Position numbers and translations under genes: made by a program. Of a stretch of 38,122 nt of DNA, positions 1 to 37,835 are shown piece by piece. Under the pieces are notes generated by a model. The model had not been told where the DNA came from. It saw only the letters and a program-made list of their open reading frames with translations, and did no database searches. Numbering within the stretch: position 1 is the first letter of the stretch; each line of letters begins with the position of its first letter. Source of the DNA: a virus (Duplodnaviria; Heunggongvirae; Uroviricota; Caudoviricetes); IMG/VR virus record IMGVR_UViG_2734482790_000003. The stretch is one strand, 5' to 3'.

Positions 1-1053
1 TTACGGGGTAATGCCAACCGCTGCCGCCACTTTGTCGCCACTTGGCAGCGTTGCCAGAGGATTGAAACGGAGCGCCGTTTCCAGATGATCCGGTGCCAGA
101 TGTGCGTAACGCATAGTCATTTTTATATCGTGGTGTCCGAGAATTTTTTGTAAGGCCAGAATGTTTCCACCCGACATCATGAAGTGCGCCGCAAACGTAT
201 GGCGCAGAACGTGTGTGAGTTGACCGCGAGGGAGCACGATAGACGTTTTTTCCATCACGGATAAAAATTGAAAATAGCAGTCTGTGAAGAAATTGAACCC
301 ATCAAGCGCCATGATCTCTTCGTAAAGCTCTTTACTGATAGGGATGCTTCTGTTTTTCTTCCCCTTCGTTCTTACAAAGGTAATTCGGTATTTGGTCACC
401 TGTGAACGAGTAAGATTTACGGCTTCTCGCCAGCGTGCGCCTGTGCTTAAGCATATCTTAACTACCAGTGCCAGAATTGGGTCCTGACGTTTGCAATCAG
501 CCAGTAATTCAACAATCTGCTCATGGGTAAGCCATGCCATCTCTTTTTCTGCGATGGTGAATTTTCGCATGTTCTCCAGTGGGTTCGGATACGACCATTC
601 GCCCAGGCGGGATAGTTCGCTAAAAACACTACTTAGATAGCTTTGCTCCAGGTTAATGGTGACCGGGCTTGCTCCTTTCTTCCATTTCTCGCTGAAGTAG
701 ATCTCACCTGTCAGGCGTTTATCTCGATAGTGGGCAAACATTTTAGAGGTTAGATCAGTTGCAAGGGGATTGCCCAGAGCGTCAACCATCAGCAGCAATT
801 TGTCATAGACATGCTGCCCAGCAGTCAGTGATTTACCATGTAGTTTGAACCATAGCTCAACCACGTCTTTCAGTGTTCGACGATCCACTGATTCACCTAG
901 CCAGGGCTTTGCTTCGGTTTCTTCCATCGTGTGACGCTCAAAAGCCAGTGCTTCGCCTTTGGTGGCGAATTGTTTACGCACACGACGCCCACTACGTCCG
1001 GCGGGGTAACATTCGCAAAGCCATTTTCCTGTGGTGAGTTTTCGTACAGCCAT
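1..1053 (-). CDS. int: Tyrosine integrase, P2/186-type
   Basis: ORF 1..1131(-). Start placed at internal Met (MAVRKLTTGKWLCECYPAG...), which matches how P2-family integrases begin. C-terminal HxxR (LRHTFAAHF) and catalytic Tyr region (MTMRYAHL). Stop codon is window bases 1-3. Confidence 0.85.
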   Translation of the reverse strand: MAVRKLTTGKWLCECYPAGRSGRRVRKQFATKGEALAFERHTMEETEAKPWLGESVDRRTLKDVVELWFKLHGKSLTAGQHVYDKLLLMVDALGNPLATDLTSKMFAHYRDKRLTGEIYFSEKWKKGASPVTINLEQSYLSSVFSELSRLGEWSYPNPLENMRKFTIAEKEMAWLTHEQIVELLADCKRQDPILALVVKICLSTGARWREAVNLTRSQVTKYRITFVRTKGKKNRSIPISKELYEEIMALDGFNFFTDCYFQFLSVMEKTSIVLPRGQLTHVLRHTFAAHFMMSGGNILALQKILGHHDIKMTMRYAHLAPDHLETALRFNPLATLPSGDKVAAAVGITP

Positions 1054-1241
1054 AAAAAATGCCCTCCAATAGAGAGCATTTTTACTGTATGTATAACCAG
1101 TGTCAATGTATGAAATCCTGCGACCATACATCTCACTGAAGCCATAATGAAGTAGGCTATTCTTTTTGCTATGTGATCATGTAACTTTTGCGGTTAACCT
1201 GTGGCTCATTTTTATTTTAGGCGCAGATTTAAAAGCAAAAG

Positions 1242-1433
1242 TTATCGTGAGTTTTTAGTACAGATTTTTTTGGATTTACTAATAGTTCCATCATTGCAAA
1301 CGAATTTGCCATCAGAGGTACAGTGAGAAACACCTCCCTTTTTCCCTGAGCAGGGATAATTTCTAGCATAGGTAGCTAGTGGGTTTAATAACAAAGAACA
1401 TGACAAAACCACAAAAAATACCTTACCAAGCAT
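1242..1433 (-). CDS. Small secreted cysteine-rich peptide (63 aa), unknown function
   Basis: Hydrophobic signal-peptide-like N-terminus ([23 protein letters not shown]) followed by a ~40-aa Lys/Gly-rich region with 4 Cys. Strong SD (GGGAGG) 6 nt upstream of ATG. Lies directly downstream of cI on the same strand, in AT-rich DNA. Confidence 0.5.
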
Positions 1434-1448
1434 AATTTCCTCCCGGTA

Positions 1449-2024
1449 CTATTTAACATACTTGACTGTTAAACTTATAATTTTACCAATTATTTCAATG
1501 TCTTCTATCTTACATTCAAAGGCTCTGTTTCCACCCTCGACGAAGATTCTTCCACCGGGTAAACGAGTAATGTCACGGATCGTTATTTCGCCATCAATAC
1601 TTATTACCCATTTACCATCACGTATATCATCAAATTCCTTATCACAAATAAATTCAGAATTATTATCTGTGATTACAAAAAGATTCTTGAATGCCGACGG
1701 TAGAAATTCTCTATCGAAAATATAAAAACCGTCTTCACACAAGGCCCCATCAGATAATACATATTTAGCAACTTCCATAGTATTTGTATTACCTGAAGTT
1801 TGCTTTGAACCATGCCCGGTTGTGAGCCAATTAAGCGAGGTGCCTGTTTCAAGGGCGCACTGGATTACCCATTCTGCTGGGAATGAGTCACGCATGTAGC
1901 GTGTGGCGAGTGTACTTTTAGAGATTCCTAAATGATCGCACAACGCCTGTCGAGTCTTGAATCCATAAGCTTCTACCATGCGCTCTATGGCGCCTCGTCC
2001 GCCTTTCTCCAAATTCATGGTCAC
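1449..2024 (-). CDS. cI: Immunity repressor CI, phage 186-type (191 aa)
   Basis: Length and sequence resemble 186 CI (N-terminal HTH ...AYGF...ALETG..L.WL.TG; C-terminal KLPGG..FVEGG..FEC). Position between int and the divergent apl. Confidence 0.8.
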   Translation of the reverse strand: MTMNLEKGGRGAIERMVEAYGFKTRQALCDHLGISKSTLATRYMRDSFPAEWVIQCALETGTSLNWLTTGHGSKQTSGNTNTMEVAKYVLSDGALCEDGFYIFDREFLPSAFKNLFVITDNNSEFICDKEFDDIRDGKWVISIDGEITIRDITRLPGGRIFVEGGNRAFECKIEDIEIIGKIISLTVKYVK

Positions 2025-3948: not shown

Positions 3949-4802
3949 GCACCATCCTGAAATGGGCGGGAAATAAAACTGCCATAATGTCCGAACTAAA
4001 AAAACATCTTCCTGCTGGCCCGCGACTGGTTGAACCTTTCGCGGGTTCCTGTGCTGTGATGATGGAGACGGATTATCCCAGCTATCTGGTTGCGGATATT
4101 AATCCTGATTTAATCAACCTCTATAAAAAGGTTGCCGCTGATTGTGAATCGTTTATATCTCGCGCCAGAGTTTTATTTGAGATCGCAAACAGGGAGGTGG
4201 CTTATTACAACATAAGGCAGGAGTTTAATTACTCAACTGAAATTACTGATTTCATGAAAGCGGTATATTTCCTGTATCTCAATCGTCACGGTTACCGTGG
4301 TTTATGTCGCTATAACAAGAGCGGGCATTTCAACATTCCCTACGGTAATTATAAAAATCCGTATTTCCCTGAAAAAGAAATTCGCGCATTTGCAGAAAAG
4401 GCCCAGCGAGCAACGTTTATCTGCGCCAGCTTTGATGAAACGCTGGCGATGTTGAAGGCGGGGGATGTGGTGTATTGCGATCCGCCGTATGACGGTACGT
4501 TTTCCGGCTATCACACTGACGGCTTCACTGAAGATGACCAGTATCACCTGGCATCTGTTCTTGAACATCGGTCATCAGAAGGACATCCGGTCATTGTTTC
4601 TAACAGTGACACATCCCTGATCCGTTCGCTGTATCGCAATTTTACTCACCACTACATCAAGGCAAAACGCAGCATCGGTGTGGCAGCTGGCGAGGGTAAA
4701 TCAGCAACAGAAATCATTGCTGTTTCCGGGCCGCGCTGCTGGGTGGGATTTGATTATTCGCGTGGCGTGGATAGTTCTGCCGTGTACGGAGTACGTGCAT
4801 GA
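3945..4802 (+). CDS. dam: DNA adenine methyltransferase (Dam-like, D12 class)
   Basis: N-terminal W.G.K and FAGSCAV (AdoMet motif I) plus DPPY catalytic motif ([12 protein letters not shown]). Its stop overlaps the gene A start (ATGA at 4799-4802). Confidence 0.85.
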
Positions 4803-7213
4803 GTCATGCCGATATGAACAACTGCTGCGGCTTTAACGAAGCTGCCGCATCGTTCTCATGGAACAGCTCGAAAAAGGCCATTAACCCTTATCTGGACCCG
4901 GTGGAAGTTGCGCCGGTTTCTACGCTTTCAAATCTGATCACTCTGTACGCTGCCGATAACGAGCAGGAACAGCTGCGCCGTGAGGCGCTGAGTGATCAGG
5001 TCTGGGAGCGTTATTTCTTTAATGAATCCCGTGATCCTGTCCAGCGCGAAATGGAACAGGATAAGCTCATTAGTCGGGCAAAGCTGGCGCATGAGCAGCA
5101 GCGTTTTAATCCGGATATGGTCATTCTGGCGGACGTCAACGCCCAGCCTTCCCATATCAGCAAGCCGCTGATGCAACGTATTGAATACTTCAGCAGCCTG
5201 GGCAGGCCAAAGGCTTATTCCCGCTATTTACGTGAGACGATTAAGCCATGTCTGGAACGACTGGAGCATGTACGCGACAGTCAGCTATCTGCATCTTTTC
5301 GCTTTATGGCAAGCCATGAAGGGCTGGACGGCCTGCTGATCCTGCCTGAAATGAGTCAGGATCAGGTGAAACGCCTGTCCACCCTGGTAGCTGCGCATAT
5401 GAGTATGTGCTTTGATGCCGCTTGTGGCGATTTGTATGCCACCGATGACGTTAAGCCAGAAGAAATCCGCAATACATGGGAAAGGGTGGCAGCGGAAACC
5501 CTGCGTCTGGATGTCATCCCGCCTGCGTTTGAGCAACTCCGTCGGAAAAGAAACCGCCGTAAACCCGTGCCCTATGAACTCATTCCGGGTTCGCTGGCGC
5601 GTATGTTGTGCGCCGACTGGTGGTATCGGAAATTATGGAAGATGCGTTGCGAATGGCGGGAAGAGCAGTTGCGTGCTGTCTGCCTTGTCAGCAAAAAAGC
5701 ATCTCCCTATGTCAGCTATGAAGCCGTGTTGCATAAACGTGAGCAGCGCCGTAAGTCGCTGGAGTTTTTCCGTTCTCATGAACTGGTGAACGAAGACGGC
5801 GACACGCTAGACATGGAGGATGTGGTAAACGCCAGCAGCAGCAACCCTGCGCATCGCCGCAATGAGATGATGGCCTGTGTTAAAGGTCTGGAGCTTATCG
5901 CGGAAATGCGCGGTGACTGCGCCGTTTTCTACACCATCACCTGTCCGTCACGTTTCCATTCCACGCTAAATAACGGCAGGCCCAACCCGACCTGGACAAA
6001 TGCGACGGTAAGACAAAGCAGCGATTATCTGGTCGGTATGTTTGCTGCATTTCGTAAGGCGATGCACAAAGCCGGGTTGCGCTGGTATGGCGTGCGGGTG
6101 GCTGAGCCGCATCACGACGGCACAGTTCACTGGCACCTGTTGTGTTTCATGCGCAAAAAAGACCGCCGCGCCATTACAGCATTGTTGCGTAAGTTTGCTA
6201 TCCGTGAAGACCGCGAGGAGCTGGGCAATAACACGGGGCCGCGCTTTAAGTCTGAGCTGATTAACCCGCGCAAAGGAACGCCGACAAGCTACATAGCGAA
6301 ATACATCAGTAAGAACATTGACGGGCGTGGTCTGGCTGGCGAGATCAGCAAGGAAACGGGTAAATCTCTGCGTGATAACGCTGAATACGTGAATGCCTGG
6401 GCGTCTTTGCATCGTGTTCAGCAATTCCGCTTCTTTGGCATTCCGGGGCGTCAGGCTTACCGTGAACTGCGATTGCTGGCTGGTCAGGCGGTAAGGCAAA
6501 AGGGGGACAAAAAAGCAGGTGCGCCGGTACTGGATAACCCGCGCCTTGATGCCATCCTGGCTGCTGCTGATGCTGGTTGTTTTGCCACCTACATCATGAA
6601 GCAGGGCGGCGTACTGGTTCCCCGTAAATATCACCTCATCAGAACCGCTTATGAAATCAACGAAGAGCCGACCGTCTATGGCGATCACGGCATTCGTATT
6701 TATGGCATCTGGTCACCCATTGCAGAGGGCAAGATCTGCACTCATGCAGTGAAGTGGAAAATGGTTCGTAAAGCCGTTGACGTTCAGGAGGCGGCAGCCG
6801 ACCAGGGCGCTTGCGCCCCTTGGACTCGTGGCAATAACTGTCCCCTTGCTGAAAATTTGAACCAACAAGGGAAAGACAAATCAGCTGATGGGGATACCAG
6901 AACGGATATCACCCGCATGGATGACAAGGAGTTGCACGATTACCTGCACAGTATGAGCAAAAAAGAGCGCCGGGAACTGGCAGCAAGGTTATGCCTGGTT
7001 AAACCGAAACGGCGTAAAGACTACAAACAGCGAATTACAGACCATCAGCGACAGCAGCTCGTCTATGAGCTGAAGTCCAGAGGATTTGATGGTAGCGAGA
7101 AAGAGGTCGATTTACTCCTTCGCGGCGGCAGTATTCCGTCAGGAGCAGGCCTGCGTATCTTCTATCGGAACCAGCGTTTGCAGGAAGATGATAAGTGGCG
7201 GGATCTGTATTAA
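4799..7213 (+). CDS. A: Replication initiation endonuclease (P2 gpA / 186 A family)
   Basis: 804-aa protein; position after the early genes; paired tyrosines in [11 protein letters not shown] typical of rolling-circle initiators. Confidence 0.85.
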
Positions 7214-7305
7214 TTACGCGCGTTAACAATTCGTGCTCTTAATAATACCAGGCATATCAGGCTGATGAACGTAAAAAAACGTTTTACATCAGTAAGATTA
7301 TTATA

Positions 7306-7325
7306 TACTGTGAATATAAACAGTG
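7306..7325. promoter_or_regulatory. LexA (SOS) box
   Basis: TACTGTGAATATAAACAGTG; CTGT-N8-ACAG at 7308-7323, 16/20 match to the LexA consensus. About 45 bp upstream of the 7366 ORF. Confidence 0.65.
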
Positions 7326-7365
7326 GTTATGTATACAGTATTGATTTGGTGTTATAGGAGGAAAG

Positions 7366-7554
7366 ATGCAGGACTATTTTTTGGAGTCTTTGAAGCTCCA
7401 GCGCATTGATTTTTTTCTTAAGCTTGTAGCGGCTAGTGAGTGTAGTGATGAAGAGAAGGGGCTGGCTTTGCAGTGGGTTTCTGAACTGACAGATGAACTC
7501 ATGGCAAAAATCAGAAGCCACGAATACAACCGCTCAATGGATGTCATCAGCTGA
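7366..7554 (+). CDS. Small protein in the SOS-controlled operon (62 aa), hypothetical
   Basis: ORF with AGGAGG SD, immediately downstream of the LexA box. Confidence 0.5.
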   Translation: MQDYFLESLKLQRIDFFLKLVAASECSDEEKGLALQWVSELTDELMAKIRSHEYNRSMDVIS

Positions 7555-7564
7555 GGTGACTTTT

Positions 7565-7798
7565 ATGCGCATTGAAATAATGATCGATAAAGAGCAGAAG
7601 ATTAACCAGTCTACCCTGGACGCCCTTGAATCCGAGCTTTACCGCAATCTGCGCCCCCTGTATCCCAAAACGGTAATTCGTATCCGCAAAGGTAGCTCTA
7701 ACGGTGTGGAACTGACCGGACTGCAACTGGATGAAGAAAGAAAACAAGTGATGAAAATTATGCAGAAAGTGTGGGAAGACGACAGCTGGCTGCATTAA
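7565..7798 (+). CDS. DinI-like protein (possible Tum-type antirepressor component)
   Basis: 78 aa starting MRIEIMIDK..., with DinI-family features (short alpha/beta protein, acidic C-terminus ...WEDDSWL). SD AGGTGA. Downstream of the LexA box. Confidence 0.7.
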   Translation: MRIEIMIDKEQKINQSTLDALESELYRNLRPLYPKTVIRIRKGSSNGVELTGLQLDEERKQVMKIMQKVWEDDSWLH

Positions 7799-7942
7799 GA
7801 AACGTTGCCTCCAGGAGGATTCATTCTGATGGGGGCTAGTTTGGGCAACGAGTGAAACGAGGCGTAAGGTGGGCGGGCATTTTGATAAGTGATCGTCCGC
7901 TTTGTGCTAGAAGCGGTCGTTACCGCTTCAGCACTTTGTTAA

Positions 7943-9802
7943 TTAGTGAGGGCTGGTTATTACGTAGTCGCTCTGGTCATCCTCTCCCAGCCTCTCAGGT
8001 ATTAAATCGTTGAAGGAAATAGTATTACTCTTAGGCTTTTCTTCAATTGGAAGTTCAGCTACCCTTAATTTGAGCGGCATGGGGCAGACGATACCACTAA
8101 AAATACAGGTTCCTGTAGATAGCGTTGGAATCGACTCTTCAGTCAGTCGATCTATATATGATACTGATTTTTCAATTGCGTACAGATCATTCTGATTAAT
8201 AAGGCGATGAATAAAATAATTGTGTGCTTGGGATATGATTGTCGACGATATATCATTAGGGCGTTGACTGGAAATTGTGATAAAAACTCCAAATTTTCTC
8301 CCCTCCTTTATGATTTCCTCAAAAGTTTCCAGACGATAATCTCTCCAACTTTCCGTTTCCCGAAAAGAAGTATTAGACAAAATATTGTGGGCTTCATCTA
8401 TAATGATGTGCAGTGTAGATTTCTCTGTAGACATTTTCTTCATATTGTAAGCCCACTTGGCTATCAAAAGAGGAAGCGTTTTTTTCATGGTTATATTAAC
8501 CATATTTAGATTCACAACCGTGAAATTATGTTCACCCCAAAAATCAGACTGTCCGGAAGTATCAAATATTTTGGCTATATCTTTACGGTTAGCACTCATT
8601 CTATTTATAACTGGTGAAATATGTTCAGGGTTAGACTTGTTAGATAAATATTCCTGTATTAACTGTAAGTACATAAAGTCCAACAGTTCTTCAATCATAT
8701 CAGTTTTAAATGAAAAATTGCTTGCAAGACTGAATAGATAGGAGCGCTCAGTATCAGCTTCTGTATTGAAAATACTACCACCCCTCAATTTCCATTTATA
8801 TGCAGTTGAATGATACTCAAGATCAGATATAAGTTCTGGGTCATCTTTGAAAATTGGGCTAAGAAACTGATTTATAGTATCGCATTTGGGTTTGTCGCTA
8901 CTAAAGAGATTTTGTCTGACTTTTTTCTTCAGGATATTGCGCATAAACTCAAGAGGATTATCAGCGGTCATCACTTTCTTGCGAAACTCAAGAACTCTCT
9001 TCAGGAAAGGTTTCTGTGTTTTGTCTGTTGCATCGGTTAGAACTGAGAGCATATCATGCTCAAGTAGAACCTCTCTGGGTAGAGGAAGTTTGTCACCATT
9101 TGCATGGTGCGTGTTGAGATTATAAACCGTCTTCTCGTCAGTAATACAGCGTGGGGCAGTATATTCTCCATTAAAGTCGAATAGAATAAATTTGCATCTT
9201 TCACTAAAGTGGTTGCCGAGAATATGTTTAACTTGGGCAATACCTGCTTTGTATAGCGCGGCTAGGGTATTTGACTTTCCGCTGCCTGTATTACCGAAAA
9301 TGGCAATGTGGGAATTAATAAGACCATTGATTGGTAGTGCAATTTCAATATCTTCAAGATCTGTACGAGTAAACCTCATTACAGTTTCGTCTGCATCAGC
9401 TATCTGATGAACCGTCTGTATCATCTCTTCAGTTACCACGAAGACTTCATTGCCGATGAGAGGTAGTTCACGCGAACCACCAATGAAGCAACCAGTACGA
9501 TCAATGTAACCCGTAAGAGTAGAGGTCAGGTATCGCCGATATCGCCAGGCATCACTGCCGCTCCCAGCGAGATGTTTTTCCTCAATGATTCGTTCCGCTT
9601 CAACCTTGCCGATCAGGCTCATGAAACCTTTTTTGATCTCAATGAAGCTACCCACTGATACATTTCTTAGAACTTTTCCCTGATAAAACAAGTCACTGAG
9701 ATTTTTGTTTTTATCGACCAAAATTGTCACAGCGCGTCCAGAAACCTCACAGACTTCGCCTATACGGAGCACCGCTTCCTCTTCAGTAAAATGCCTGCTC
9801 AT
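7943..9802 (-). CDS. herA: HerA/FtsK-like ATPase, partner of the SIR2 protein (SIR2-HerA defence system)
   Basis: Walker A GNTGSGKSNT and Walker B/DEAH-like IIIDEAH. Start taken at MSRHFTEE with GGGAGG SD, overlapping the SIR2 stop (ATGA). AT-rich composition. Confidence 0.75.
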   Translation of the reverse strand: MSRHFTEEEAVLRIGEVCEVSGRAVTILVDKNKNLSDLFYQGKVLRNVSVGSFIEIKKGFMSLIGKVEAERIIEEKHLAGSGSDAWRYRRYLTSTLTGYIDRTGCFIGGSRELPLIGNEVFVVTEEMIQTVHQIADADETVMRFTRTDLEDIEIALPINGLINSHIAIFGNTGSGKSNTLAALYKAGIAQVKHILGNHFSERCKFILFDFNGEYTAPRCITDEKTVYNLNTHHANGDKLPLPREVLLEHDMLSVLTDATDKTQKPFLKRVLEFRKKVMTADNPLEFMRNILKKKVRQNLFSSDKPKCDTINQFLSPIFKDDPELISDLEYHSTAYKWKLRGGSIFNTEADTERSYLFSLASNFSFKTDMIEELLDFMYLQLIQEYLSNKSNPEHISPVINRMSANRKDIAKIFDTSGQSDFWGEHNFTVVNLNMVNITMKKTLPLLIAKWAYNMKKMSTEKSTLHIIIDEAHNILSNTSFRETESWRDYRLETFEEIIKEGRKFGVFITISSQRPNDISSTIISQAHNYFIHRLINQNDLYAIEKSVSYIDRLTEESIPTLSTGTCIFSGIVCPMPLKLRVAELPIEEKPKSNTISFNDLIPERLGEDDQSDYVITSPH

Positions 9803-25956: not shown

Positions 25957-26558
25957 TGTATAACGCCATCTTGAATAGTAAATTTATTGCCACAAAGGCA
26001 GGAGAGATTACCGTTTATAACTATGACAGTGAGACACGGGAGTATATTTCTGCATCAACTGAATATCTTGCTGTGGGTGTCGGTATCCCTGCATATTCCT
26101 GTTTAGATGCTCCTGGCACACATAAGGCTGGTTATGCAATCTGCCGTTCGGCAGATTTAAACTCATGGGAATATGTGCCAGACCATCGCGGTGAAATCAT
26201 CTATAGCACCGAAACAGGAGAATCGAAAGAAATCACAGCTCCGGGTGATTATCCTGAAAATACAACCACTATCGCCCCGTTAACGCCATACGATGAATGG
26301 GATGGTGAGAAATGGGTAACAGATACTGTGGCACAGCATAGCGCCGCAGTAGGCGCGGCAGAAGCACAGCGTCAGTCACTGATTGATACTGCAATGGCTT
26401 CCATTAGTCTGATTCAGCTGAAATTGCAGGCCGGACGGAATCTGACGCAGGCAGAAACCGCCCGACTTAACGCTGCGCTGGATTACATTGACGCGGTGAC
26501 GGCAACAGATACCAGCACCGCGCCGGATGTCATCTGGCCTGAACTGCCGGAGGCGTAG
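25953..26558 (+). CDS. G: Tail fibre assembly chaperone (P2 gpG family)
   Basis: 201 aa; immediately downstream of H; conserved C-terminal region (..LDY.DA....DTS.APD..WP..P). Confidence 0.8.
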   Translation: MMYNAILNSKFIATKAGEITVYNYDSETREYISASTEYLAVGVGIPAYSCLDAPGTHKAGYAICRSADLNSWEYVPDHRGEIIYSTETGESKEITAPGDYPENTTTIAPLTPYDEWDGEKWVTDTVAQHSAAVGAAEAQRQSLIDTAMASISLIQLKLQAGRNLTQAETARLNAALDYIDAVTATDTSTAPDVIWPELPEA

Positions 26559-26970
26559 GCCATTCAATATCTGGCGCACCGGAAGTATCGACCAGTTCCA
26601 GTGCGTCCAGATAATCCAGCCACAAATTATATTGCGCCAGTTCCTCACCTTTCAGACGACCAATAGCCGCTTTACCAGGCCATTGTTTACTGTTCATATA
26701 ATCGTTGGCCTGATTAATCAGTTGCTGCTTTTCCTGTTCGGCTGCAGCAATCTGTTCCTCATGTGTTGGTGGTGGAATTTCAGACCATGCAGGAAAACCA
26801 TTTTCTCCAGCGATACGGATTTTTCCTTTCGGCGGTAATCCGGAAAACGCAATATACACTTGCTCATCAACTTCAACAGCATCATCTGGCCATGAGTCAG
26901 CTTGAGTGTAATCCTCTTTCATCTCCAGCGGATAGAAAGAGTTTGTAGTCGCGGAATATATGTAATTCAT
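26530..26970 (-). CDS. Alternative tail fibre assembly chaperone (G'), opposite orientation
   Basis: 146 aa. C-terminus (NLWLDYLDALELVDTSGAPDIEWPTPP) parallels the gpG C-terminus. Convergent with G inside the invertible segment. Confidence 0.7.
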   Translation of the reverse strand: MNYIYSATTNSFYPLEMKEDYTQADSWPDDAVEVDEQVYIAFSGLPPKGKIRIAGENGFPAWSEIPPPTHEEQIAAAEQEKQQLINQANDYMNSKQWPGKAAIGRLKGEELAQYNLWLDYLDALELVDTSGAPDIEWPTPPAVQAR

Positions 26971-26991
26971 TTTTCACTCCATATAGCTAAA

Positions 26992-27329
26992 TTAACAGCC
27001 TAACGCTAAAAATGAAGCGCCGAGGCCAGGAGTACTGGCTCTGGATATAAATTTAACCGGGTCGGGACTAAAACCTGCACAGGCAATATAACCAACAGCC
27101 CCGCTATCTGGTGTGTAGTCTTGTGAGACCAAAACACGCAGACATCTGTTTGGAAATGCAATCGGGAAATGGGTTACTACATCCTGTGCAATGCCTGGTG
27201 CGCCGATTGAGCCCCACTGAAGAATAAAACCTGATGGTAATTTTTGATATCCAGTACCTGAAACAGAAAGCGTGAAGCTACCCATATCAGGTATCTGATT
27301 CGCCCCTGTCCCTACATTCCTTTTAGCCG
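26992..27329 (-). CDS. Alternative tail-fibre C-terminal exon (no start of its own; would fuse to the H constant part after inversion)
   Basis: Minus-strand reading frame continues in frame from the right inverted repeat (..[11 protein letters not shown]...). The Met start in the ORF track (27384) lies outside the segment and is not meaningful. Confidence 0.5.
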
Positions 27330-27344
27330 CTTCTCCCAAACCAA
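27330..27344. repeat. Right inverted repeat of the invertible tail-fibre segment
   Basis: CTTCTCCCAAACCAA, reverse complement of 25418-25432. On the minus strand it encodes the same G-L-G-E in frame with the alternative exon. Confidence 0.65.
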
Positions 27345-27411
27345 CGTTTATGAAAATGCAGAGATAATGGCTAACTGGCATCATCCACGGTTTTTATTCA
27401 GGGGATTGATC

Positions 27412-27978
27412 ATGCTTATTGGCTATGTACGCGTGTCAACAAATGACCAGAACACCGATTTGCAACGTAATGCACTGAACTGCGCGGGATGTGAGCGGAT
27501 TTTTGAGGATAAAATCAGTGGCACTAAGTCCGACAGACCGGGGCTTAAAAAACTGCTCAGGACACTATCGGCAGGAGACACTCTGGTTGTCTGGAAGCTG
27601 GACAGGTTGGGGCGCAGTATGCGGCATCTTGTTACGCTGATAGAAGAGTTGCGCCAGCGTGGTGTGAATTTCAGAAGCCTGACTGACAGTATTGATACCA
27701 GTACCCCAATGGGCCGTTTCTTTTTTCATGTCATGGGTGCCCTGGCTGAAATGGAACGCGAACTGATAGTTGAACGTACCATGGCAGGGCTGGCTGCAGC
27801 TCGTGCCAAAGGCAGAGTAGGTGGACGCCGTCCTAAGTTGACCACCGAACAGTGGGCACAGATTGGGCGTTTACTCGAGGCCGGAGAATCAAGACAGCGT
27901 ATTGCACTGATTTTTGATGTAGGCGTTTCTACCATTTATAGAAAATTTCCGGCAAATAAGAGCAATGAATCCCCCTGA
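27412..27978 (+). CDS. Site-specific DNA invertase (Gin/Pin/Cin/Hin serine recombinase family)
   Basis: MLIGYVRVSTNDQNTDLQ... with catalytic-Ser motif (YVRVST) and C-terminal HTH; ORF 27367 trimmed to Met 27412. Adjacent to the inverted-repeat-bounded segment. Confidence 0.85.
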   Translation: MLIGYVRVSTNDQNTDLQRNALNCAGCERIFEDKISGTKSDRPGLKKLLRTLSAGDTLVVWKLDRLGRSMRHLVTLIEELRQRGVNFRSLTDSIDTSTPMGRFFFHVMGALAEMERELIVERTMAGLAAARAKGRVGGRRPKLTTEQWAQIGRLLEAGESRQRIALIFDVGVSTIYRKFPANKSNESP

Positions 27979-35267: not shown

Positions 35268-35353
35268 CGCTGCCGCCATTTTGTCGCCATCGTTAAAAAA
35301 CAGTGTTTCTAACATCATGATTTTAAACAGCTTAAATTTTAGGCAACAAAAAA

Positions 35354-35390
35354 CCCATCAACCTTGAACCGAAATGGCGGGGTTGATGGG
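35354..35390 (-). terminator. Candidate rho-independent terminator downstream of ybjL (within the prophage-host junction region)
   Basis: Inverted repeat CCCATCAACC...GGTTGATGGG followed on the minus strand by a T tract. Confidence 0.4.
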
Positions 35391-35502
35391 CTCCACAAAA
35401 TGGGGACATCAAAGAAAAGCAGTGGCACTAATTAAGACTGATGCCCTGCGGAAAAGTTCTGCGGTTGTGCAAAAAAATTTCATTTTCAGGGCAACTTCAG
35501 TT

Positions 35503-37188
35503 TTATCCTAATCCTGGCCATACCATGACGATGATTGTCCCTGCCAGCGTCAGCAGGACGTTGGCGATTGCATAGGTGCCCGCATAGCCCAGCGCCGGGA
35601 TGTTACTGCGAGCTGTATCACTGATGATCTCCATTGCCGGCGCGCAGGTACGTGCGCCCATCATTGCGCCGAACAACAGCGCGCGGTTCATTCGCAATAC
35701 ATAAGCACCGAACAAGAAACAGATAACCACGGGCACCAGACTGACAATCAATCCGGCAATCAACATCTGACCGCCAATCGCGCCCAGGCCGTTATTAATA
35801 CCGCTACCGGCGCTCAGACCAACGCCTGCCATAAACACCATCAAGCCGAACTCTTTCACCATGCTTAATGCACCCTGCGGAATGTAACCGAAGGTCGGGT
35901 GGTTAGCACGCATAAAGCCCAGCATAATTCCGGCGAATAACAACCCGGCAGCGTTCCCCATGCCGAAACTGAATGTGCTGAACTGGAAGGTGATCATCCC
36001 GATCATCAGCCCAATAACAAAGAAGGCGCAAAATGCCAGCAGGTCAGTGACCTGGCTGTGAATCGAGATAAAGCCGATGCGATCGGCGATGGTTTTTACG
36101 CGACGGGCATCACCGCTGACTTGTAAAACGTCACCTTTGTTAAGCACGACGTTGTCATCTATCGGCATCTCAATCTGGCTACGAATGACGCGGTTAAGGA
36201 AGCAACCGTGATCGGTCAACTTCAGTTGTGCGAGACGTTTACCTACAGCGTTATGGTTTTTAACGACCACTTCTTCAGTGACGATACGCATGTCGAGAAG
36301 GTCACGATCGAAAACTTCTTTACCGTTACGGAAGCTGGGATCGAGTCGGGCATGGGCGTCGGGATAGCCTACCAACGCTATTTCATCGCCCATTTGTAGC
36401 ACGGCATCACCGTCTGGATTTGCCAGAATCCCGTTACGTCGAATACGTTCAATGTAGCAGCCGGTTTGTCGATAAATACCCAGTTCACGCAGATTTTTGC
36501 CGTCGGTCCAGGCCACCAGCTCCGGGCCGACGCGATAGGCGCGGATCACCGGTAAATAAACCTTACGGTTGGCATCAGTGTCCAGGCCACGTTCGCGGGC
36601 GATTTGCTGGGCGCTGGTCTGTAAGTCCTGATGCTGCAATTTCGGCAAGTAACGCGCACCAACAATCAAACTCACCAGACCGATTAAATAGGTTAAGGCA
36701 TACCCGAGGCTCAGATTATCCAGTGCCAGTGAGAGCTGCCTGCTTTCCATGCCGGAATGACGCAGTGTATCGCCAGCACCGACCAGAACCGGTGTCGACG
36801 TCATAGAGCCTGCTAACATACCGGCCGTCAGGCCAATATCCCAGCCAAACAGCTTACCTAACCCTAAGGCGATCACCAGCGCACTGCCAACCATCACCAG
36901 TGCTAACATTAGGTAATTTTTCCCATCGCGAAAAAAAATGGAAAAAAAGTTCGGTCCGGCTTCAACCCCAACACAGAAAATAAACAGCATAAAGCCAAGA
37001 TTAAGCGCATCGGTGTTAATGCTGAAATGTTGTTGGCCTAATAACAGCGATACGACTAAAACGCCAATGGAATTACCCAGTTGGATCGAACCAAGTCGTA
37101 ACTTTCCGAGACATAGCCCAAGCGCGAGGACCACAAATAATAACAGAATGTAATTCCCATTTAACAATTCGGCGACGTTTATATTCAC
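35503..37188 (-). CDS. ybjL: Putative transport protein YbjL (host gene)
   Basis: 561-aa multi-pass membrane protein with duplicated TM domains around a central cytoplasmic region; recognised as E. coli YbjL. Confidence 0.8.
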
Positions 37189-37457: not shown

Positions 37458-37835
37458 GTGAAACATAAACAACGTTGGGCGGGGGCAATCTGCTGTTTTG
37501 TCCTCTTCATTGTGGTGTGCCTTTTTCTGGCGACGCACATGAAAGGCGCTTTTCGGGCTGCCGGGCATCCTGAAATCGGCTTGCTATTTTTCATTCTTCC
37601 TGGAGCAGTCGCCAGCTTCTTTTCACAGCGTAGAGAAGTCCTGAAACCTCTGTTTGGCGCAATGCTGGCGGCACCCTGTTCGATGCTCATTATGCGGCTG
37701 TTTTTTTCACCGACGCGCTCATTCTGGCAAGAGCTGGCATGGTTATTAAGTGCGGTGTTCTGGTGTGCGCTGGGGGCACTGTGTTTCTTATTTATCAGTA
37801 GTTTGTTTAAACCACAGCACAGAAAAAATCAGTAA
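37458..37835 (+). CDS. ybjM: Inner membrane protein YbjM (host gene)
   Basis: 125-aa membrane protein, divergent from ybjL, in conserved E. coli synteny with grxA. Confidence 0.75.
   Translation: MKHKQRWAGAICCFVLFIVVCLFLATHMKGAFRAAGHPEIGLLFFILPGAVASFFSQRREVLKPLFGAMLAAPCSMLIMRLFFSPTRSFWQELAWLLSAVFWCALGALCFLFISSLFKPQHRKNQ

Follow-up and report, generated by a model that had tools for sequence, protein, structure and literature searches.

A split 186 Tum-type SOS antirepressor module in a P2/186-like Escherichia coli prophage

A tumA-tumB operon in a nearly complete prophage

We found a 186 Tum-type SOS antirepressor system, divided over two small genes, in a 38,122-nucleotide stretch of viral DNA (IMG/VR record IMGVR_UViG_2734482790_000003; hereafter the window) that is a nearly complete P2/186-like E. 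coli prophage. In the reading we prefer, to which we assign a probability of roughly 0.9, the module belongs to a 186/Fels-2-like (Peduoviridae) prophage and is its SOS operon, in which LexA silences tumA and tumB, TumA titrates the immunity repressor CI, and TumB tunes the SOS response. The system is already known: genetic tests exist for identical genes, and the division into tumA and tumB has been both published and annotated in GenBank. The residual value of the analysis lies in an annotation gap concerning TumA and in two side observations that may be new, namely a co-variation between TumA and CI types and a LexA-like box in the int promoter.

The left end of the window holds int (1-1053, minus strand), a 63-aa ORF (1242-1433, minus strand), and cI (1449-2024, minus strand), which encodes a 186-type immunity repressor, the presumed target of TumA, and whose likely start is the ATG at 2018, giving a protein of 189 aa. 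Between cI and replication gene A (gpA, 4799-7213; Pfam Phage_GPA, 2.1e-128) lie apl-like and cII-like genes, a Dam methylase, and fil-, DUF2732-, and DksA-like ORFs that were assigned by synteny with the annotation of prophage DuoHS. The module follows gene A and consists of tumA (ORF62; 7366-7554, plus strand, 62 aa) and tumB (7565-7798, plus strand, 77 aa). The window's right end is host DNA with ybjL, ybjM, and RybB (35345-35423).

To compare the module across relatives, we used 80 IMG/VR loci that each encode an ORF62 at least 98% identical to that of the window (the TumA class). Similarity to these relatives ends at most 10 nt past the tumB stop codon in 64 of the 80 loci, and tumB is thus the final gene of the backbone ahead of a variable cargo site. 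The operon forms the fixed left edge of this site, which here carries two defence systems: a convergent SIR2-HerA pair (7943-10857), found in none of the 80 relatives, and PDC-M03 A/B (11438-13089), found in 3. The SIR2-HerA pair lies outside the SOS operon because it is on the opposite strand. Across complete E. coli genomes, the tumA/tumB module was present in 1125 of 5426, or about one in five.

The LexA box and its promoter

The predicted LexA operator (SOS box) is the 20-mer TACTGTGAATATAAACAGTG at 7306-7325, with the core CTGTGAATATAAACAG at 7308-7323; it was called, without a strand, from its CTGT-N8-ACAG pattern and its conservation. LexA boxes have the consensus TACTGT(AT)4ACAGTA, with which the 20-mer agrees at 16 of 20 positions. 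Apart from the core, the window has no exact CTGT-N8-ACAG. Such a match is expected 0.39 times per window by chance, at least one occurred in 33 of 100 shuffles, and the bare pattern, taken alone, has no significance. What places the box well beyond chance is its position 5' of the operon together with its conservation across relatives. It sits in the 152-bp gap between gene A and ORF62, directly 5' of the operon, and the exact box recurs 43 nt 5' of the ORF62 start in 76 of the 80 TumA-class relatives, with a one-base change in three of the remaining four. In 186-type tum loci, a box lies 19-20 nt ahead of tum in 80 of 80, with CTGT and ACAG constant and the centre variable; the two sets combined keep the box at a fixed position in 156 of 160 loci. 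A box also stands 5' of an ORF62 or Tum N-terminal homologue in the more distant P2-like phages ENT90, YenM_324, YenM_201.16, ESSI-2, ESSI2_ev015, and PSP3, and for ESSI-2 and ESSI2_ev015, which we aligned, the DNA flanking the boxes was mostly unalignable. The window box carries a G at position 7, in the variable centre, and differs by this one base from the majority box of DuoHS and Fels-2. We infer that LexA binds directly at 7306-7325.

A further conserved sequence, GGTTATGTATACAGTA, occupies 7325-7340 and has a perfect right half-site and a poor left half.

By analogy with 186 p95, the equivalent SOS promoter in the window would span 7283-7311 on the plus strand, with a putative -35 element TTTACA (7283-7288), a 17-nt spacer, and a weak -10 element TACTGT (7306-7311) that doubles as the left arm of the LexA box. 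The annotated p95 of 186 reads TTCACA, 18 nt, and TACTGT, with the LexA site beginning at the -10, and ESSI2_ev015 has the layout TTCACA-17-TACTGT. A consensus promoter scan of 7100-8100 called no promoter; this silence is explained by the weak -10, which matches the consensus at 3 of 6 positions, and the annotated 186 p95 has a weak -10 as well. Between gene A and the -35 lies a hairpin followed by U residues, with a z-score of -2.26 against shuffled sequences. An Rfam search of 7200-8000 returned no match.

ORF62 and the N-terminal half of Tum

Pairwise BLASTP between ORF62 and 186 Tum produced no alignment, as the N-terminal halves of the two modules are too diverged for this method. On its own, the empty result would have refuted a relationship of ORF62 to Tum, but profile comparisons overturned it. 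We aligned a profile of ORF62 relatives with a Tum-N profile, whose members were residues 1-70 of 186 Tum, the homologues from ENT90, YenM_324, and YenM_201.16, and PSP3 TumA; hhalign returned a match over 41 columns (Prob 96.4%, E = 1.2e-9). The PHROG families connect the same proteins: ORF62 matches phrog_698 (its own family), phrog_8554, and phrog_1993 (the PSP3 TumA family, 0.002), residues 1-70 of 186 Tum match phrog_1993, phrog_8554, and phrog_698 (5.9e-6), and PSP3 TumA matches phrog_1993. By eye, a motif of (E/Q)R(I/V)-x-hydrophobic run, C, then AL-x-W(I/V)-x-E(L/M) is common to ORF62, the Tum N-terminus, and small stand-alone ORFs of other P2-like phages. These comparisons support ORF62 as a homologue of the N-terminal half of Tum, and on the profile, PHROG, and sequence matches we name ORF62 TumA and the DinI-like gene TumB.

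Searches of ORF62 against Pfam, NCBIfam, and PDB sequences found no match. The AlphaFold2 model consists of two helices (residues 2-23 and 28-61; pLDDT 90), so TumA is predicted with confidence to be a helical hairpin, and the protein is acidic (pI 4.6). Some relatives have longer database entries (84-109 aa), which we considered as possible fusions to DinI; they are instead N-terminal extensions that read through the operator. ENT90, YenM_324, and YenM_201.16 each keep a stand-alone Tum-N homologue behind its own LexA box and have no DinI gene. Since these three phage lineages keep a LexA-controlled TumA homologue without DinI, and since the genetics of PSP3 agrees, the small N-terminal module appears to be the functional antirepressor unit. 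Although its role has genetic support, TumA belongs to no Pfam or NCBIfam family and is labelled "unknown function" in PHROG, and the E. coli genome and phage records among the matches listed call it "hypothetical protein."

TumB and the split of the module

The second gene has a Shine-Dalgarno sequence GAGGTGA at 7553-7559, and the ribosome-binding site of tumA is AGGAGG at 7356-7361. A sequence-only reading of this DNA had described a LexA box ahead of two small genes with strong ribosome-binding sites, the second of them DinI-like, and had suggested that a Tum-type module was here split into two ORFs in different frames. All of these elements were found where that reading had located them, and the frames indeed differ (7366 mod 3 = 1, 7565 mod 3 = 2); the division into two genes is real and corresponds to the tumA/tumB layout of PSP3 and Fels-2. 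TumB matches positions 2-63 of the 63-position Pfam DinI profile (PF06183; E = 1.2e-22), and its score of 80.4 bits exceeds the cut-off of 24.2. Its alignment with E. coli DinI (1GHH; E = 3.6e-6) runs from end to end and includes the C-terminal acidic segment W-E-D-D-S-W. The equivalog model for host DinI, NCBIfam NF007893, scored 42.5 bits, under its cut-off of 111; TumB is a phage DinI-like paralogue and not host DinI, as judged from its sequence. The reading had further stated that the C-terminal part of Tum is related to DinI and had proposed an alignment with 186 Tum. The relation held: across 75 residues, TumB shares 41% identity with positions 71-145 of 186 Tum (E = 3e-24), and the relationship of ORF62 to Tum emerged from profiles alone. 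TumB is therefore homologous to both the C-terminal half of 186 Tum and PSP3 TumB, the latter at 76.6% identity; the Fels-2 and HS counterparts are 98.7% identical. As a member of the DinI family, TumB may bind RecA filaments. That reading had offered modulation of host RecA as an alternative to antirepression; we regard it as compatible, a role for the second gene and not a rival to the antirepressor.

The two genes are closely packed. The tumB Shine-Dalgarno sequence overlaps the tumA stop codon, and TumB accompanies TumA in 79 of the 80 relatives, the exception lying at a contig end. A hairpin at 7543-7560 had been flagged as terminator-like and holds the tumB Shine-Dalgarno sequence in its 3' arm; we rejected it as a terminator-like element, as its stability is no better than that of shuffled sequences (z = -1.19). 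The reading frame of tumB extends open as far back as 7493, into the end of tumA, and a programmed +1 frameshift or read-through could in principle remake a fused Tum. This too was rejected: there is no slippery site at AGC-TGA-G, and an open run of 20 codons arises by chance with a probability of about 38%.

Comparison with known systems

The closest tested system is DuoHS, a P2-like prophage of E. coli HS, in which an in-frame deletion of "tum" (ECHS_RS04495) abolishes induction by mitomycin C, as does a lexA(Ind-) allele (Ortiz de Ora et al. 2025, PMC12055606). The lexA(Ind-) phenotype establishes SOS dependence, and not direct control of the tumA promoter by LexA. In the HS genome, ECHS_RS04495 encodes 62 aa and is flanked by the genes for the replication endonuclease and the DinI-like protein (ECHS_RS04500). 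TumA (62/62 residues) and CI (189/189) are identical between DuoHS and the window, TumB matches at 76 of 77 residues, and gpA is 97.5% identical; the intergenic region is the same but for a few bases, and both prophages occupy the same chromosomal site, on the rybB/ybjL side. They differ in one central base of the LexA box, in a box-to-start spacing that is 1 nt shorter, and in the cargo 3' of tumB, which in HS is two plus-strand hypothetical genes in place of SIR2-HerA and PDC-M03.

The split form of the module was described by Lemire et al. (2011, PMC3121763), who noted that 186 Tum resembles an antirepressor fused to DinI, that tum is split in two in Fels-2 and PSP3, and, as a personal communication, that the antirepressor activity of PSP3 belongs to the upstream gene. 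Both phages resemble the window in having a small upstream gene and a DinI-like gene behind a LexA box, directly after gene A. The PSP3 record annotates them as tumA ("UV induction of prophage") and tumB, and Fels-2 has STM2728 (62 aa) and the DinI-family STM2726.1 at the same place. The Fels-2 proteins are 96.8% (TumA, STM2728) and 98.7% (TumB) identical to those of the window, whereas Fels-2 CI is only 41% identical to the window CI. PSP3 TumA belongs to the other subtype (21% identity to window TumA; phrog_1993 and not phrog_698), and PSP3 tumA and tumB share a frame with a stop codon between them, whereas the genes of the window and of Fels-2 are in different frames.

In 186 itself, Tum (146 aa) likewise follows gene A, a LexA box overlies the TACTGT -10, and the target is a 186-type CI; the N-terminal module of Tum is homologous to TumA and its C-terminal module is DinI-like. 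The location directly downstream of gene A thus matches across 186, PSP3, Fels-2, and DuoHS. The 186 protein is a single fused polypeptide followed by orf97 on the same strand, whereas the window has two cistrons, no homologue at the orf97 position, and convergent defence genes next. The 186 record also lists a shortened product, begun at an internal GTG and equivalent to the DinI-like part, so that a separate TumB-like protein is annotated there too. In that phage, the LexA-regulated p95 drives Tum, CI is sequestered reversibly, and repression returns as the SOS response decays (PMC7708051); Tum binds CI and abolishes its operator binding (Shearwin et al. 1998, as reported in PMC3121763 and PMC7708051). 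For the TumA subtype of the window, the corresponding evidence is genetic and comes from DuoHS.

The dinI-gfoA/gftA genes of the Salmonella lambdoid prophages Gifsy-1/2/3 are similar in combining a LexA box, a DinI homologue, and a small antirepressor that inactivates a non-cleavable repressor (PMC3121763). They differ in phage type and in gene order, with dinI first. Lemire et al. do not present these antirepressors as Tum homologues, and the repressors are of the DicA/RacR group and not 186-type CI; we set the two systems apart on the basis of these descriptions.

Proposed mechanism and alternative explanations

We propose that in the lysogen, host LexA bound to the box at 7306-7325 would shut the promoter, and the operon would be silent because the box overlaps the -10. 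Upon DNA damage, active RecA would trigger LexA self-cleavage and allow a bicistronic tumA-tumB transcript. TumA would then bind the 186-type CI non-covalently and keep it off its operators, and loss of CI from these sites would turn on the early lytic promoter (apl, cII, and replication genes), giving induction without CI cleavage. TumB most likely acts on RecA filaments, tuning the strength or duration of the SOS response, and would not itself be an antirepressor. Under this model, DNA-damaging agents should induce the prophage by way of LexA and a small antirepressor, in a reversible manner that leaves the repressor intact.

The sequence-only reading had likewise favoured an antirepressor over CI autocleavage, and both the repressor and the DuoHS genetics bear this out. 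The window CI matches Phage_CI_repr (2.8e-33) and Phage_CI_C (2.7e-27) in Pfam and the 186 CI structure 2FJR (2.6e-31), and is 33% identical to 186 CI. A lambda-like scheme, in which RecA stimulates CI autocleavage and the LexA-controlled genes are accessory SOS modulators, could draw on a Peptidase_S24 match in the CI C-terminal domain; this match is partial and sub-threshold (16.3 bits against a cut-off of 23.3). Membership in the 186 CI family weighs against such a scheme, as 186 induces through sequestration by Tum and not through cleavage (PMC7708051), and DuoHS, with an identical CI, does not induce once tum is deleted. From family membership and the DuoHS phenotype, we infer that the window CI is not autocleaved, and we regard autocleavage as very improbable. 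We judge equally improbable that the LexA-like sequence is vestigial or arose by chance and that the operon is read through from the early lytic transcript past gene A. The chance expectation of the pattern, the lack of a strong sigma-70 promoter call, and the shared orientation of tumA, tumB, and gene A would be compatible with it, but a chance match would not be expected to hold a fixed position in nearly all related loci and recur in distant phages with divergent flanks. The SOS dependence of DuoHS and the hairpin with U residues between gene A and the -35 also speak against read-through.

Somewhat less remote, though still improbable, is that TumA alone is insufficient and that the effective inducer is TumB, or TumA and TumB jointly. 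The loss of induction in the DuoHS deletion would then reflect the loss of a coupled tumB or of a two-protein antirepressor that rebuilds full Tum. The two halves are one polypeptide in 186, they almost always occur together in the relatives, and translational coupling is conceivable, as the tumB Shine-Dalgarno sequence overlaps the tumA stop codon within the hairpin at 7543-7560; the DuoHS deletion removes tumA cleanly, yet an effect on tumB translation is possible. That hairpin, however, does not exceed shuffled sequences in stability, the antirepressor activity of PSP3 was attributed to the upstream gene, and ENT90, YenM_324, and YenM_201.16 dispense with DinI altogether. Furthermore, Gifsy prophages with non-polar dinI deletions showed no significant change in induction (PMC3121763). 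We therefore retain TumA as the antirepressor and TumB as the modulator of SOS.

TumA type and CI diversity

It is possible, though we hold it to be somewhat doubtful, that the SOS input of these prophages is broader than in textbook 186, with TumA acting as a generalist antirepressor on the conserved N-terminal domains of CIs that have diverged to 23-34% identity in their linkers and C-terminal domains, and LexA directly repressing the int promoter. The first part concerns the diversity of CI. Across the 80 TumA-class loci, TumA identity never falls below 98%, whereas that of the linked CI to the window CI spans 37 to 100%; gpA and CII in the same loci are 89-100% identical, and cI lies 5.4 kb upstream of TumA. 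These loci encode 44 distinct CI sequences, and 10 loci have forms of ~310 aa with two tandem N-terminal domains. Within the class, CI identity is higher in the N-terminal HTH domain (median 76%, minimum 58%) than in the C-terminal domain (median 34%, minimum 23%); between the TumA class and the 186-Tum class, the medians are 42% and 32%, respectively.

We clustered the CI N-terminal domains at 55% identity and obtained three groups. The 41 distinct CIs linked to an ORF62-type TumA were all placed in one cluster, and 56 of the 58 linked to a 186-type Tum in another, so that for 97 of 99 distinct CIs the TumA type co-varies with the type of the N-terminal HTH domain of CI, and not with the C-terminal domain. 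In the ORF62-type cluster, the segment SKST-x-A-x-RY-x-RD-x-FPA-x-W-x-IQCALETG is almost invariant. We hypothesize, and only hypothesize, that TumA contacts the N-terminal HTH (DNA-binding) domain of CI, because shared descent, or linkage of the 5' part of cI to the conserved early region, could give the same pattern of co-variation. Such a contact fits the known ability of Tum to block operator binding. If TumA were a generalist of this kind, one damaged prophage could induce co-resident relatives in trans.

A LexA-like box in the int promoter

The second part concerns a candidate SOS-controlled promoter for int (1078-1106, minus strand). Searching for the consensus core with 3 mismatches allowed, we found a LexA-like box, CTGGTTATACATACAG, at 1100-1085, about 25 nt ahead of the int start codon. 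It lies in the 17-nt spacer between TTGACA (1106-1101) and AAAAAT (1083-1078), and the int coding strand reads TTGACA-CTGGTTATACATACAG-T-AAAAAT; the promoter scan scored this promoter 10/12. Such an int promoter is lacking in 186-type loci, whose cI and int genes abut or overlap. We found no description of a LexA-repressed int promoter in the open-access literature. If LexA did repress int, excision would be coupled to the SOS signal, and antirepression and excision would be switched on in parallel.

The int promoter region of DuoHS is identical to that of the window. Among relatives with the same int type, we compared 8 variants of the int upstream region, and all keep the -35, CTG(T/G/A)-N8-ACAG, and the -10, while the central bases differ and the upstream flanks differ or are unrelated; CTGT-N8-ACAG is perfect in three of the variants, and one carries CTGA. 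The int leader also contains a hairpin followed by a U-run; the hairpin includes the Shine-Dalgarno sequence, and compensatory changes preserve its fold (z = -3.9 to -4.6).

Tum type and CI diversity

To compare repressors, we used cI of the window (1449-2024, minus strand) and of loci L010-L169. Across the 80 loci in which the antirepressor TumA is at least 98% identical, identity of the linked immunity repressor CI ranged from 37% to 100%, with 44 distinct CI sequences. At these loci the N-terminal HTH domain of CI was conserved (median 76%) and the C-terminal domain had a median identity of 34%, a divergence equal to that between phage lineages. Tum type tracked the type of the CI N-terminal domain (NTD) in 97 of 99 distinct CIs. 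Some relatives encode a CI of about 310 aa, in which two tandem N-terminal HTH domains are followed by one C-terminal domain; two NTD matches were found in CI at ten loci, and those named for this arrangement are L025, L030, L053, L057, L064, L070, L076, L077, and L089.

TumA itself (7366-7554, plus strand) matched no model in Pfam or NCBIfam, and the E. coli genome and phage records that were listed give it as a "hypothetical protein." In many of its database versions, which are 84-109 aa long, the N-terminus is spuriously extended and runs through the promoter and operator. These observations cover TumA of the window and the database entries P0001, P0004, P0022, and P0061.

LexA-like sequences outside the main box

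Upstream of the integrase gene int (1-1053), on the minus strand, we found a sigma-70 promoter (1078-1106; TTGACA, 17-nt spacer, AAAAAT) that matches the consensus at 10 of 12 positions, and inside its spacer lies a LexA-like box, CTGGTTATACATACAG (1100-1085, minus strand). The start of int is approximately 25 nt downstream. The −35 element, a CTG(T/G/A)-N8-ACAG box, and the −10 element were kept across eight variants of the int upstream region among relatives, with differing flanks, and the box was a perfect CTGT-N8-ACAG in three of the eight. This is a candidate SOS-inducible promoter of int; we found no description of an SOS-inducible int promoter of this kind in the open-access literature.

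The int leader, directly 5′ of the ATG, encodes an RNA hairpin followed by a U-run (1054-1082, minus strand), and the hairpin contains the Shine-Dalgarno sequence of int. Its folding z score was −3.9 to −4.6, and compensatory changes preserve it in relatives (GCUCUC/GAGGGC, GCCCUC/GAGGGC, and GUCCUC/GAGGAC). The hairpin may serve as an attenuator or in translational control of int.

Directly 3′ of the main LexA box, which precedes tumA, is a conserved element, GGTTATGTATACAGTA (7325-7340), with a perfect right half-site (ACAGTA) and a poor left half. It is retained in the Salmonella prophage Fels-2 and in DuoHS, a P2-like prophage of E. coli HS, and also in one relative (L010) in which the main LexA box is lost. 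Its role may be that of a second, weak LexA site, or it may belong to a promoter.

Cargo, accessory genes, and integration site

The variable cargo between the DinI-like gene tumB and the portal gene Q includes two defense systems: SIR2-HerA (7943-10857, minus strand; PADLOC E values of 6.3e-211 and 6.1e-267) and PDC-M03 A/B (11438-13089, plus strand), with a weak HipA_C match in one protein and a HIRAN domain in the other. PDC-M03 was present in 3 of 80 relatives and the SIR2-HerA pair of the window in 0 of 80. RNA of the spacer from tumB to the end of herA (7800-7945) is unusually structured (−58.6 kcal/mol, z −4.9), with no match in Rfam. The alignment of most relatives ends before this spacer, which therefore probably belongs to the cargo cassette and is perhaps its terminator.

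A cysteine-rich ORF of 63 aa, hydrophobic at its N-terminus, is inserted between cI and int (1242-1433, minus strand; NCBIfam PRK10040 family, 1.3e-33). Phage 186 has no gene at this position. A resolvase-type invertase (27367-27978) adjoins oppositely oriented tail-fiber C-terminus and tail-fiber-assembly ORFs (26530-27384), which suggests an invertible host-range segment.

At its right end, the prophage abuts rybB. The host flank comprises the RybB sRNA (35345-35423, minus strand; 105 bits), a ybjL-like permease (35503-37188, minus strand), and ybjM (37458-37835, plus strand). DuoHS occupies the same chromosomal site.
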